Positions 29,269 through 36,441 are shown, numbered from the stretch's first letter. The stretch: DNA of 64,000 bases from Polyangiaceae bacterium (GCA_046351325.1 JAXLYR010000002.1:624334-688333), one strand, 5' to 3'. The notes: generated from the sequence alone by a model not told the origin. Made by a program: numbers and translations.

Positions 29269-30959
29269 GGAGACTCCGAATCAGGTGCGGATTGGGAGAC
29301 CGATGCGCGCAGCCGATCGCGGGCGCCAACGAGCTTGTCCCTGGCGGAGCTCAGGGTCGAACGCGAGCTCTCGAGGGCCTGCACGAGCGCACGCATGGGC
29401 TCGGGCGGGACCCACGGTGGCGGGTCGAAGCGCGCGAGCTGATCCTCGAGGACTGCGCCGTAGCGATCCAAATCGACGAGCGCCTTCTCGACGTTCGCGA
29501 GCTGCCCGGACGCCAACCGGCGAAAGTCCGGGTCGGGCTCGAACAGGGGCTCGCGCGGCGTGTCGCCCCAAAAGAGGTTCTCGGACTTTTTGATATAGAG
29601 CTCGAGCGCGTCGATGCTGTTCGTCGCGCTGAAGTGGTCACGCCAGAGCTCGGCGACCGTGTGACCCGTCGAGGCACGCGCAGGGTGCTTGAAGAGCGGC
29701 TCGCCGTCGGTGCCTTTTATTGGCTTGTGAGCCGTGGACACGGGAGTCGGCGCGCCGTCGTCTCCCATATAAAGGGGCCGACCTTGTTCGTCGCGCCGCG
29801 CGCGCTGCCCGCTGCCCCGTTGCTCGATCCAACCCTCGAAGGACTGCGCCATTCGGGCGTAGCGCGCCGGCTCGAGCTTCACGTAGTCGAAGAGGTGACC
29901 CCCGAGCCAGCCCTCGACCGCCCTGCGCTGCACCGGTGTGTCCCCGACGACGGCGGTGAGCAGCCAAGCATCCCAGAGGACGACGACGTCGCGATCCACC
30001 GTGCGGGCCGCGACGCGCAGGAGCTTCATCGCCTTGAGCCAGCGCCGATCGGAGACGAAGATCTCATTGGCGGTCGCCCACTCGCGCAGAGCGCTGAATA
30101 CGTGGACGACGCCTGGGCTTACAGAGATGTTCGCGGCGGAGGCTTGGAGCTCACGGATCTCGGCGGGCGTGAATCGGTCCTCGTCCGCGACCGGGCGAGG
30201 CGCGAAGTCCTTGGCGGCGAGGAGCGCGCGCATCCCCGCCGGGCTCACGGGCGCGACCTCGTGGCGCACGAGGAACCGGTCGAGGAGCGCCCGAAGCTCG
30301 TCCCCCTCGGGCAGCTCGTTGCTCGCCGCGACGACCGCGAGCAACGGCAGCTCGACGCGCTCCGCGCCGTTCTCGAAGCGACGCTCGTTCAAGATGCCGA
30401 GCAAGGTATTCAGGATGGTGCTGTTCGCTTTGAAGATCTCGTCCAGGAACGCAATGGAAGCGGTCGGTAGATAGCCTGCTGTGACACGGACGTAAGCGTC
30501 CGCTTCGAGGGCGCGCAGCGACAAGGGGCCGAAGAGCTCCTCGGGGACGGTGAATCGCGTGAGCAAACGCTCGAAGAACGCGCCCCCGCCGAAGGCGCCT
30601 AGGAGCCTGCGCGCGATCTCGCTCTTTGCGGTGCCGGGCGGCCCGAGGAAGAGGACGTGTTCACCTGCCAGCACCGCGAGCAACGCCAATCGCATGGCCT
30701 CGTCACGCTCGACGAGACCTGCCCCCAACGCCTCGAGGATGCGCTCGATACGCTGTCGCACGACTGAGCGTGAGGATACTCCAGGGCGGCGCGCCTTGGA
30801 ACGCGGCGCGCTTTCGACGGCGAGCCGACCAAAAGATTCTAGGGAAACGCCTGCGATCTCTTCAGCGAATGCGCATGAAACAAAGTCGCGACGATTCGCC
30901 CGTAGGGCCGTTGACAGGAGCGAGGTGGTCTGTAACTCATGAGAGCGCGATGAGAGCAC
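29265..30959 (-). CDS. MoxR-type AAA+ ATPase, RavA-like
   Basis: Walker A (FLGPPGTAKSEIARRL) and Walker B/sensor (IAFLDEIFKANSTILNTLLGILNER) motifs. The start is uncertain: the track start at 30959 would overlap the divergent vgrG start, and an alternative GTG lies near 30779. Confidence 0.75.
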   Translation of the reverse strand: MLSSRSHELQTTSLLSTALRANRRDFVSCAFAEEIAGVSLESFGRLAVESAPRSKARRPGVSSRSVVRQRIERILEALGAGLVERDEAMRLALLAVLAGEHVLFLGPPGTAKSEIARRLLGAFGGGAFFERLLTRFTVPEELFGPLSLRALEADAYVRVTAGYLPTASIAFLDEIFKANSTILNTLLGILNERRFENGAERVELPLLAVVAASNELPEGDELRALLDRFLVRHEVAPVSPAGMRALLAAKDFAPRPVADEDRFTPAEIRELQASAANISVSPGVVHVFSALREWATANEIFVSDRRWLKAMKLLRVAARTVDRDVVVLWDAWLLTAVVGDTPVQRRAVEGWLGGHLFDYVKLEPARYARMAQSFEGWIEQRGSGQRARRDEQGRPLYMGDDGAPTPVSTAHKPIKGTDGEPLFKHPARASTGHTVAELWRDHFSATNSIDALELYIKKSENLFWGDTPREPLFEPDPDFRRLASGQLANVEKALVDLDRYGAVLEDQLARFDPPPWVPPEPMRALVQALESSRSTLSSARDKLVGARDRLRASVSQSAPDSESP

Positions 30960-35500: not shown

Positions 35501-36441
35501 CTGGGTTCAAGGTCTTCTCGGACAGCACGACGGACCTCGTCGCGCGGAACACTGCCCACGTGCTCGCGCTCGGTCGCTTCGAGGACGGCAATCGGACGAA
35601 GGGCTCGGGCATCGCGCGCGTCGCTGGCTCGTTCGCTGTCGAGCTCGCGGGGCAAGAGCGCGTGGTCTTGGGCGTCCGCGACGAGAATCTCGGTCGCGTG
35701 GAGGTGCTCGGGCGGACGGTCGCTATCGGCATGACCGACGTCGATGTAACCCACGACAAGTTCGGGCTCGCGGACCGCGGGACCGTGAAGGGCTGGCCGA
35801 CGGATCTGCGCGCGGCGCACGCGCAGACCTCGTCTCTCCTCATGCACTCGACCTCTCAGGCCTGCATGGTCGTCGGCGACTACATGATTCATGTCCGCAG
35901 CAAGGCCGAGGACCTCGCGCCCTTCAACCGGATGATCGACGAGCGCCTCGCGGCGGCCAAGACGGCGGTGAATAGCTTGAAGGCGCGCAGGTCCGTGATG
36001 ACGCTCGCGGGTGTGGACCTCAAGGAGATCAACGCACAGATCGCCGAGGCCGAGGTCGTCGAGCGCCGCGCCCAGAAGGACAAAGACGAGGGCCCGCAGC
36101 TCGCAGACGAGGGCATCATCATCAGCATGCGCGACGCCGCGCGGAGCACCTCGGCTCACAATTGGGCGGCCGAGAACAAGCCTTCCATCGTGGTCAGCAA
36201 GAAGGGGATCACCATCACGACCACGACGAACAAAGACGCCGAGGACGCGACGGCGCGCATCACGCTCGACAAAGACGGCATCTCGATCGTCGTCGGCGCG
36301 AACGGCGCGGGCGCGAAGATCTCCAAAGACAAGGTGGAGCTCCGGAGCGCAAAGAAGCGAGCGGTGCTCGACGACAATCAGCTGACCTACGACGGCTCGA
36401 AGATCGACTTCAGCTCGGCGCAGAAGATCACGCTCGGCTGA
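32596..36441 (+). CDS. giant VgrG-associated protein: unknown ~800-aa N-terminal region followed by DUF2345/VgrG-C-terminal-like beta-helical repeats
   Basis: A 1281-aa ORF with normal composition. C-terminal repeats (SKGSIGLIANKGISLGTPDRIVGVGGQGIVFVADGG and, at the very C-terminus, ITLDKDGISIVVGANGAGAKISKDKVELRSAKK) resemble spike beta-prism repeats. It lies 191 nt downstream of vgrG on the same strand. Confidence 0.7.
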   Translation: MRFYMGDVTVDIPTRYSIFVPKPLSRLNLGGWQKREGASQSPKFGYDGVSIQSEKSLFLDVWKGTYLQAQGGFVGHASEWLQVSTKAMTLATLDNATMGADGIVTLAAGAGQGPTWTLDHGDSMETVPYLNLGLHYRVEEIQNGLFEFFRGRRKKDDPAMEMVYPPGQDWVRPTAATAFMKAEVTFDSSDPDKGGAEYRMKKGNPIVQDSPFLTPATWEVTPKPLRGGFELMAEQSWQLLHGKPDWSFREETDNKDWRDGDDPASKKKPKKVAPYDLFSGMKDVRYDPASPAKSAHGVTHALEVQNDVDANRGAATSDVLKWGFSSYFSRFDPYLLVDPDVVRYDPKLGPTEKQICVFLAHANNLATNLKRRIDVLYKLTSVVKDNAFMKLVTNAAQAVDGLYQPVKALRSNVEAWAGMFRGDRGAFHEQMADEGIFGMGKRGLLWQKLGANSAAKSTAKAAVRSIAPYKDPTPSAVNPNGPDADDAKKGFYGGDQQFGGGYKLRNGHQLADGDQITISSKKKDGTVVTFDTPPLRLSATAAVIKGSAVTSSSWIYDAGTYLEVAYDGGAYTKVDLTNVPGAKPAAILGSPILQSAFTVPATANTLVIPGTLAGTSLTVAVDGVETTIAFDETNSVSTATVRAALADALPELEVLVVAGVTLKHKKYGPGARIEIKDSTARTALGLPLTAVSGAGIDAVMAYVQGHLPNTTLASSALKFQSTTTGTTSKVALRQTPQGVLAELGISATSATGTAPKLARDVTAEDLVALFSQAPEAAGVVKFTAEDGQVVITSEFAGDTSFVRVTRKTGEMCQALQFLGDQRGEADYDEVRELPEIARGLDDFDKANTELQKMPDDAGNLVRPIIVLAKNAMNIVSKAYGVAKSLAKVAGIKLPSSKGSIGLIANKGISLGTPDRIVGVGGQGIVFVADGGTGAPDKAKYVLLEDTFNRIIGGDIFGKYEKPKPPKETTGFKVFSDSTTDLVARNTAHVLALGRFEDGNRTKGSGIARVAGSFAVELAGQERVVLGVRDENLGRVEVLGRTVAIGMTDVDVTHDKFGLADRGTVKGWPTDLRAAHAQTSSLLMHSTSQACMVVGDYMIHVRSKAEDLAPFNRMIDERLAAAKTAVNSLKARRSVMTLAGVDLKEINAQIAEAEVVERRAQKDKDEGPQLADEGIIISMRDAARSTSAHNWAAENKPSIVVSKKGITITTTTNKDAEDATARITLDKDGISIVVGANGAGAKISKDKVELRSAKKRAVLDDNQLTYDGSKIDFSSAQKITLG

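Follow-up and report, generated by a model that had tools for sequence, protein, structure and literature searches.

The stretch analysed here, hereafter the window, comprises 64,000 nucleotides (nt) of the genome of a Polyangiaceae bacterium (GCA_046351325.1 JAXLYR010000002.1:624334-688333), in which a short vgrG gene, encoding a type VI secretion system (T6SS) spike protein, is followed on the same strand by a gene for a very large protein. An original prediction, made from the sequence alone, had taken this pair for a truncated vgrG followed by a protein carrying the missing part of the spike behind a candidate payload. The pair and the parts of the large protein, whose residue numbers count from GTG 32596, are listed below; A1 is an alignment of homologues of the large protein, and pLDDT is the predicted local distance difference test score of AlphaFold models.

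30950-32404, plus strand: short vgrG/tssI, 484 amino acids (aa) (Pfam Phage_GPD and Phage_base_V, TIGR03361)
32405-32607, plus strand: spacer between the two genes, 203 nt, or 191 nt if counted to GTG 32596 (from the sequence)
32608-36441, plus strand: large gene, putative cargo or spike extension, 1277 aa (open reading frame (ORF), 19 close homologues)
32623-33060, plus strand: N-terminal DUF2345-like module (N-module), aa ~10-155 (91 of 93 relatives, DUF2345 matches at family level)
33061-34005, plus strand: conserved, mostly helical region, aa ~156-470, candidate payload (alignment A1, AlphaFold pLDDT 47)
34123-35085, plus strand: variable region, aa ~510-830, with a small beta domain and three tandem ~65-aa alpha/beta modules
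35233-35895, plus strand: second DUF2345-like region, aa ~880-1100 (DUF2345 matches at family level, AlphaFold monomer pLDDT below 50)
35905-36099, plus strand: coiled-coil hairpin (predicted, antiparallel), aa ~1104-1168, of variable sequence
36112-36441, plus strand: C-terminal end of beta-strand repeats, aa ~1173-1281, ending ...SAQKITLG (AlphaFold beta-hairpins)

As judged from its sequence, the first gene encodes a bona fide VgrG in which a gp27 hub and a gp5 OB-fold precede a minimal tail. In Pfam, the hub matches Phage_GPD over the full profile (residues 28-325, E 1e-61) and the OB-fold matches Phage_base_V (residues 387-450, 29.1 bits for a cut-off of 23.8), with an additional weak DUF6484 match at residues 421-449. 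The protein also scores well above the NCBIfam cut-offs for TIGR03361 (VgrG/TssI; 276.8 bits, cut-off 186.35, profile positions 9-467 of 513) and TIGR01646 (242.2 bits, cut-off 121.8), and shares 100% identity with an NCBI entry from the same 1.14-Mb contig that bears the annotation TssI/VgrG. The OB-fold is followed by ~35 residues ending SGVLVEIDDGV, with ...GDPDRPLIVGSAPNAVTPSPVFDAEPTLHRIRTSSGVLVEIDDGV as the C-terminal end before the stop. Just as originally predicted, a C-terminal trimeric beta-prism (the gp5 C-terminal repeats/DUF2345) was found neither by Pfam nor by TIGR03361 nor in an alignment with canonical VgrGs, in which the stop falls at the 'NELRFED' position, where six canonical VgrGs taken from annotated plasmids begin 200-500 residues of beta-prism.

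Importantly, this VgrG is not truncated, as had been claimed, because its ~120 best homologues, which come from Sorangium, Chondromyces, Minicystis, Byssovorax and many metagenomes (45-60% identity), are nearly all 476-507 aa long and all end at the same position. Tail classes among these homologues include ...SGVLVEIDDG(A/G), ...IEMKD and ...FDLVDE, and a prism-less VgrG of ~480 aa is the normal form in Polyangiaceae. The same conservation of length and end point excludes the scenario, raised by the original prediction itself, in which a frameshift or nonsense mutation would recently have split an ordinary vgrG into the two ORFs, and to which we give practically no credence. All that speaks for it is that, at first sight, prism-like sequence comes after a VgrG, but the two-gene arrangement recurs in at least seven independent loci with 35-60% identity, the genes are separated by a non-coding spacer, and the second protein has its own N-terminus, conserved at the initiator Met in all homologues.

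For this second gene, the predicted gap of 191 nt and length of 1281 aa hold if translation starts at GTG 32596, but not for ATG 32608, which is the NCBI start and corresponds to the N-terminus conserved in all the homologues in alignment A1. The spacer displays no convincing promoter or terminator and exceeds those in the sister loci, i.e. other loci with relatives of the pair (designated by L numbers), which measure 25-28 nt in L001 and L003 and ~25-100 nt in L006, L017, L022 and L023. When searched by itself, the large protein, 100% identical to the hypothetical protein U0271_09705, matches nothing in Pfam, NCBIfam, PHROGs or the sequences of the PDB. A word-indexed search yielded 19 close homologues, all annotated as 'hypothetical', two of which (P0004 and P0008) are paralogues in the same metagenome-assembled genome (MAG), with the locus tags U0271_06800 and U0271_35960, and a genome scan yielded four loci, every one in Polyangiaceae MAGs. 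An exhaustive profile search of 1.84 billion representatives identified 190 superfamily proteins at E <= 1e-3, and domain mapping of these relatives revealed a modular family made of the N-module, the aa 880-1100 block, a C-terminal end (aa 1165-1281) and a variable middle. The N-module of ~150 aa is common to ~90 proteins of 700-1400 aa that are otherwise divergent, and starts at the protein N-terminus in 91 of 93 relatives. It carries the motifs RYSIxVPKPLxRxNLG, FGYxGVS, GAGQGPTWTLDHGD and LHYRVEEIQNxLFEFFRGRR, and is proposed to be the VgrG-docking and beta-prism segment.

An idea of what this module might be came from the superfamily member P0243, which gave the first hint of DUF2345. When the N-modules of 60 diverse members were scanned singly against Pfam, nine matched DUF2345 (best E 2e-5), while every other family was matched only once or twice; in the aa 880-1100 block, DUF2345 was the only recurrent Pfam family (5/33 sequences, best E 4e-6). 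A profile of the N-module produced seven weak matches in the PDB (E 0.4-5), four of which fall within the prisms of VgrG/gp5 spikes (8gra, 9gtr, 9vzk and 6sjl). In a local calibration with 160 sequences, composed of ten test proteins (six canonical VgrGs, three short VgrGs without a prism and one homologue of the VgrG-5 C-terminal domain), the same ten in reversed and in shuffled form, and a set of 90 unrelated proteins, the top three non-family matches of the hidden Markov model (HMM) of the N-module were canonical VgrGs, again within their prisms. The HMM of the C-terminal end matched residues 916-985 of Burkholderia savannae VgrG-5 with 13.7 bits, the best decoy reaching 5.7, and the end of the large protein (aa ~1173-1281) may thus bear a weak resemblance to the tip of VgrG beta-prisms. 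The same VgrG-5 pairing was weak in hhalign (E 0.02, probability 2%), and nothing significant was seen there for the family against the six canonical VgrGs or their alignment. No PDB match came from searches, by sequence or by profile, that used the full family, and a search for further homologues of the VgrG-5 C-terminal domain returned one sequence only.

The claim that the last third of the large protein contains DUF2345-style repeats is therefore supported at the level of the superfamily, sub-threshold and transitively, but not for the window protein itself, which has no DUF2345 match at E 0.01, its N-module and aa 880-1100 fragments having none at E 1. The first ~800 aa, previously described as motif-free, include the N-module, and the arrangement is not inverted, as had been thought, because the strongest DUF2345 signal lies in this module, directly after the VgrG.

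The other parts of the large protein are less easily related to known proteins. AlphaFold2 monomer models were built from the 19-sequence alignment for aa 1-478 (pLDDT 47) and aa 470-1281 (pLDDT 62). Confident prediction is seen for aa ~510-830 (pLDDT 80-94), with one beta domain and the three alpha/beta modules, the copy number of which differs between homologues, while the coiled-coil hairpin is followed by a series of beta-hairpins to the C-terminus (pLDDT 65-84). Since AlphaFold is unconfident in the N- and C-terminal conserved blocks, the coiled coil and the middle modules are the only parts for which fold searches tell anything. Foldseek searches of the models against the PDB gave a best E of 0.04, and a weak resemblance to FliD and tail-sheath surface domains was seen for the middle modules. 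The helical region (aa ~156-470) has invariant motifs in alignment A1 (GGFE, YGFSxYFSRFDPY, LKRxxDVxYK and DE) and no PDB sequence match, and the block best conserved in A1 is aa 880-1100, with the motif KLPxxKGxIGLxAxKGISLGTPDRIVGxGGQGIVFVADGGTG. The middle modules also occur in 3-5 tandem copies in unrelated proteins of 1400-1780 aa that match no Pfam family. Within P0217, P0223, P0226, P0233 and P0236 (~1270-1780 aa), they are contained in 3-5 tandem units of ~230 aa, and these proteins, likewise without a Pfam family, make up a distinct, uncharacterised family of repeat proteins.

The sister loci provide the genetic context. A short vgrG lies directly 5' of the superfamily gene in L001, L003, L006, L017, L022 and L023, and in L004 the distance is one gene; the L017 superfamily member is distant, with little beyond the N-module in common. 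All the VgrGs paired in this way, including that of the window, have a tail ...EIDD(G/E), whereas in the two inspected loci that have no gene of the large family the VgrG tails are DLVDE (Sorangium, L008) and EMKDQ (L021). Furthermore, the VgrGs closest to that of the window (53-60% identity) share contigs with genes of the large family. Of the indirect evidence for a physical interaction with VgrG, the joint occurrence of tail class and N-module is the best, albeit in a small sample. Around the pair, the sister loci encode DUF2169 proteins (some fused to pentapeptide repeats), pentapeptide proteins, DUF3540 proteins, a Tox-PAAR-like/DUF4150 protein of 123-135 aa and often a Ser/Thr kinase, and Tvp class III-type genes were seen in L003, L004, L006, L018, L020, L021 and L023. 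The Tvp class III components of the sister loci tie the family firmly to T6SS spikes, as opposed to phage tails or extracellular contractile injection systems (eCIS), and tblastn searches of plasmids and phages together with a scan of viral contigs found no relatives of the pair.

Three side observations concern these loci. In L004, a long-read MAG, the large-family gene (9962-13923) is split into two frames that overlap (9962-10756 and 10468-13923), for which a frameshift in the assembly is a more probable explanation than a pseudogene. In L021, a short VgrG (8001-10098; ...EMKDQ) is followed by a COMM-domain protein and faces a full Tvp class III set, including a PAAR-like-Peptidase_S41 effector, so that prism-less VgrGs work with other types of cargo. 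In L015 (4796-5221), a plasmid of Mesorhizobium ciceri, a stand-alone protein of the class II TvpC type comes after a canonical long VgrG; it belongs to DUF6484, the family to which the OB region of the window VgrG has its weak match.

Taken together, these findings outline a model in which the pair is probably an orphan T6SS spike with a spike-attached cargo module of the Polyangiaceae bacterium. The large protein would form a fibre-like trimer, the N-module of which would stack on, or complete, the end of the VgrG trimer, supplying the prism in trans and loading the protein onto the T6SS. The remainder (helical region, alpha/beta decoration modules, second prism, coiled-coil hairpin and tip-like end) would then leave with the spike upon firing by a T6SS encoded outside the window, and the terminal prism might take a PAAR-like (DUF4150) cap with the help of Tvp class III chaperones from other parts of the genome. 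As originally predicted, the spike would be split over two polypeptides, the second of which carries prism-like sequence and a candidate payload. Overall, the original observation is largely real and its interpretation partly supported: right on the split spike and the candidate payload, and wrong on truncation, inversion and horizontal transfer (the last is dealt with below).

Several findings weigh against this model. All the support for DUF2345 is sub-threshold and transitive, through superfamily members, and the window protein never reaches the gathering score of this family (PF10106, 30.7 bits). Both DUF2345-like blocks have a pLDDT below 50 in the AlphaFold2 monomers (aa 1-220 and 840-1088), which would fit obligate trimeric prisms modelled as monomers, and equally a shallow alignment. 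The T6SS core, PAAR and Tvp genes are all absent from the 64-kb window, and neither a recognisable toxin domain (Pfam, NCBIfam, PHROGs, PDB) nor an immunity gene was found. Finally, two sorts of sister loci break the pairing: L021 and L008 have a short VgrG and a full Tvp/PAAR-like set with no large-family gene, so that the short VgrG can presumably form a spike without the large protein, while L005 and L007 have large-family genes with no vgrG within 10 kb upstream.

These loci, together with L018, which has a large-family gene without an adjacent vgrG, would be accommodated by the main alternative, which we consider unlikely, yet worth serious attention. Here, the short VgrG would already be a complete spike with a minimal-prism tail that binds the PAAR-like/PIPY cap directly, and the large protein would be non-axial cargo bound to the spike or its adaptors, using its DUF2345-like parts for its own trimerisation. 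In accord with this scenario, the weak DUF6484 match of the VgrG is to a family of the class II TvpC type, which consists of an OB-fold and a very short prism. However, the N-module is strictly N-terminal and DUF2345-like and is tightly paired with EIDD-tailed VgrGs across short spacers (~25-100 nt in sister loci), and direct binding between DUF2345 and VgrG has been published (PMC10673891), all of which speaks against this scenario.

The sister loci have a further recurrent feature. Methyltransferases of ~520-560 aa with Methyltransf, MethyTransf_Reg and WHD_PKMT domains, hence similar to protein-lysine methyltransferases (PKMTs), flank the large-family gene, one or two per locus, in L001, L004-L007 and L017, and a similar gene lies in the island of L020. 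Their positions are as follows.

L001, 13799-15367: PKMT-like gene
L004, 8339-9895 and 13960-15513: PKMT-like genes
L005, 8452-9942 and 13716-15191: PKMT-like genes
L006, 13612-15141: PKMT-like gene
L007, 8345-9901 and 14333-15835: PKMT-like genes
L017, 3464-5095: PKMT-like gene
L020, 1918-3609: PKMT-like gene

No such gene was found in the window (tblastn, Pfam), and the association is thus a lead on the family rather than a property of the locus. The large-protein family is rich in lysine (K 6.3-8.8%, R 3.5-4.8%), with a K/(K+R) ratio of 0.6 for a window mean of 0.26. Known targets of PKMTs, each methylated at many lysines, are rickettsial OmpB (PMC8232902) and the trimeric adhesin AtaA, a surface fibre (PMC11784438). 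The flanking genes and the lysine richness therefore suggest that the large protein may be a PKMT substrate. The joint reading, in which this lysine-rich family would be a new class of in-trans T6SS spike extensions, multiply methylated in most loci by the dedicated PKMTs of the flanking genes and with a new membrane-active or enzymatic payload in aa 156-470, is a long shot. If true, it would make the family the third class of bacterial PKMT substrates after OmpB and AtaA, and the first on a secreted component of an injection machine, in which lysine methylation might protect the large protein against ubiquitylation or proteolysis inside the prey, be it eukaryotic or bacterial.

In the window, genes were called by their GC3 > GC1 > GC2 pattern (G+C content at the three codon positions), and all 43 predicted genes were scanned with Pfam. 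No Hcp, TssB/C, PAAR, baseplate or ClpV gene was found among them, in agreement with the original prediction, and no DUF2169, DUF3540 or DUF4150 gene either; tblastn with the DUF2169, DUF3540, PAAR-like and PKMT proteins of the sister loci as queries gave no match. With no T6SS core or spike-assembly gene in 64 kb, the locus is an orphan within the window, and it represents a reduced and isolated version of a vgrG-cargo module that is specific to Polyangiaceae. This isolation would suit a T6SS-independent role for the pair, in another contractile injection system, a prophage tail, or a surface fibre or adhesin with a co-opted VgrG-like base, as would the weak likeness of the middle modules to FliD and tail-sheath surface domains and the PKMT-like neighbours of the homologues, since PKMTs modify surface fibres (PMC11784438). 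We nevertheless hold such a role to be very improbable: the score of the VgrG exceeds the curated cut-off for T6SS VgrGs, the sister loci contain the T6SS-specific DUF2169, DUF3540 and DUF4150, no relatives were found in viral contigs or phage genomes, and there is no sheath, tube or baseplate gene nearby. From the original proposal of a T6SS or other contractile system, the T6SS thus stands, while an eCIS is unlikely.

The window neighbours of the pair have no relation to secretion in Pfam. Those closest to it are the following.

25462-30959, minus strand: MoxR-VWA-beta-propeller ternary system of three genes (FG-GAP/ASPIC propeller, VWA and bpMoxR AAA+)
36443-37993, plus strand: lipoprotein-like ORF (signal peptide and Cys) without Pfam match, directly after the large gene
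38008-38751, minus strand: second lipoprotein-like ORF (signal peptide and Cys) without Pfam match

The ternary system is upstream of vgrG and divergently transcribed, and the annotated start of MoxR overlaps that of vgrG by 10 nt, which means that one of the two starts is probably mis-set. The lipoprotein-like ORFs are unlikely to be immunity genes because they are not conserved beside homologues of the large gene. A DUF4159/VWA-GATase1 pair is found further downstream. Elsewhere in the window, and unrelated to the spike locus, there is another very large ORF (53801-57733, plus strand; 1310 aa, GC3 0.93, no Pfam match). At 14761-18290 (minus strand), a DUF1552 (HXXSHH) gene is paired with a DUF1592/1588/1595/1587/1585 (PSD/PSCyt) gene; this is presumably the pairing of DUF1552 with DUF1592-type genes described from Planctomycetes, the window copy being that of a myxobacterium.

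The suggestion that both genes are AT-richer than their neighbours, and horizontally acquired, has little basis in composition. The window has 67.5% G+C, and the G+C contents of vgrG (63.6%, z -1.3) and the large gene (64.9%, z -0.9) are only slightly below the mean of the window genes (67.3 +/- 2.7%). Since GC3 is at or above the mean (0.84 and 0.88, for a window mean of 0.82), the lower G+C reflects amino-acid content, notably lysine. Recent horizontal transfer was rejected on these figures.

If the large protein is indeed carried by the VgrG spike, the locus is of interest in several respects. Almost nothing is known of type VI secretion in Polyangiaceae, the family of the Sorangium group of predatory, metabolite-rich myxobacteria, and their VgrGs prove here to be uniformly prism-less. 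The consistent pairing of the EIDD-G/E tail class with an unannotated superfamily of 1,000-1,400-aa proteins, the N-terminus of which resembles the missing prism, provides a concrete and testable model of how spikes might be built and loaded in these bacteria. It would extend the split between VgrG, DUF2345 and toxin beyond Pseudomonadota and offers a portable N-terminal module that could be used for finding further cargo. It also flags a large payload without assigned activity and a recurrent link with protein-lysine methyltransferases.

Parts of this arrangement are reminiscent of known systems. In Tvp class III, represented by VgrG1-Paar1 of Serratia marcescens, the genes encode TvpAB, TvpB, TvpC and Paar1, and the DUF3540 protein TvpC is an OB-fold and prism mimic of VgrG (PMC13373197), while DUF2169 proteins chaperone DUF4150 'PIPY' tips (PMC11883445). 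The sister loci are similar in having DUF2169 (with or without pentapeptide repeats), pentapeptide, DUF3540 and DUF4150/PAAR-like genes beside the short vgrG. However, the class III VgrGs have unusually long prisms (PMC13373197), whereas the window VgrG has none and prism-like sequence is found on a separate protein. The window itself, moreover, has no Tvp gene.

VgrG-5 of the Burkholderia T6SS-5 has a C-terminal domain that is reportedly required for host cell-cell (membrane) fusion. B. savannae VgrG-5 is the best match to the window VgrG among annotated plasmids (33% identity over 98%), and it is followed by TagAB-5, which is of the DUF2169/pentapeptide type. Its coiled-coil-like stretch and beta strands ending ...IQLG weakly match the C-terminal end of the large protein. 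Yet VgrG-5 is a single chain of 994 aa, the similarity is weak (~13 bits) and extends over ~70 residues only, and a fusogenic function is not evidenced for the large protein. The long prism of Serratia VgrG1 has been linked to membrane depolarisation, and by analogy the payload may have its nearest counterparts in Serratia VgrG1 and Burkholderia VgrG-5, with their C-terminal prisms that are long and membrane-active. The spike of Francisella (a VgrG of 164 aa and PdpA, PDB 6u9e) also divides the parts of a canonical VgrG among separate polypeptides, but the division is opposite, its VgrG being prism only, and beyond a weak Foldseek match (6u9e_B, E 0.06) there is no significant similarity in sequence or fold.

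Perhaps the closest parallel comes from a survey of 130,825 vgrG loci in which DUF2345 was found fused to the VgrG C-terminus, as a stand-alone protein, or at the N-terminus of a downstream toxin (PMC10673891). In E. coli PAR (AKO63_2953-2955), a stand-alone DUF2345 binds both VgrG and an M35 toxin and is needed for their interaction, while in Pseudomonas aeruginosa PS42 (Q094_05019-05020) VgrG is followed by a DUF2345-M35 fusion, these split loci being equivalents of the fused VgrG2b (PMC10673891). The window is like PS42 in that a DUF2345-less VgrG is followed by a protein that starts with a DUF2345-type module, here by sub-threshold similarity, which then continues into the payload. It differs from these systems in that no immunity gene is evident and the host belongs to Myxococcota rather than Pseudomonadota, in its payload of ~1,100 aa without a known toxin domain where the models carry an M35 metallopeptidase, and in the addition of a second DUF2345-like region and an end resembling a VgrG tip. 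By sequence, then, the kind of arrangement, a split VgrG with an effector that has DUF2345 at its N-terminus, is already known, and what appears to set the Polyangiaceae pair apart is the divergent module and the much larger payload.

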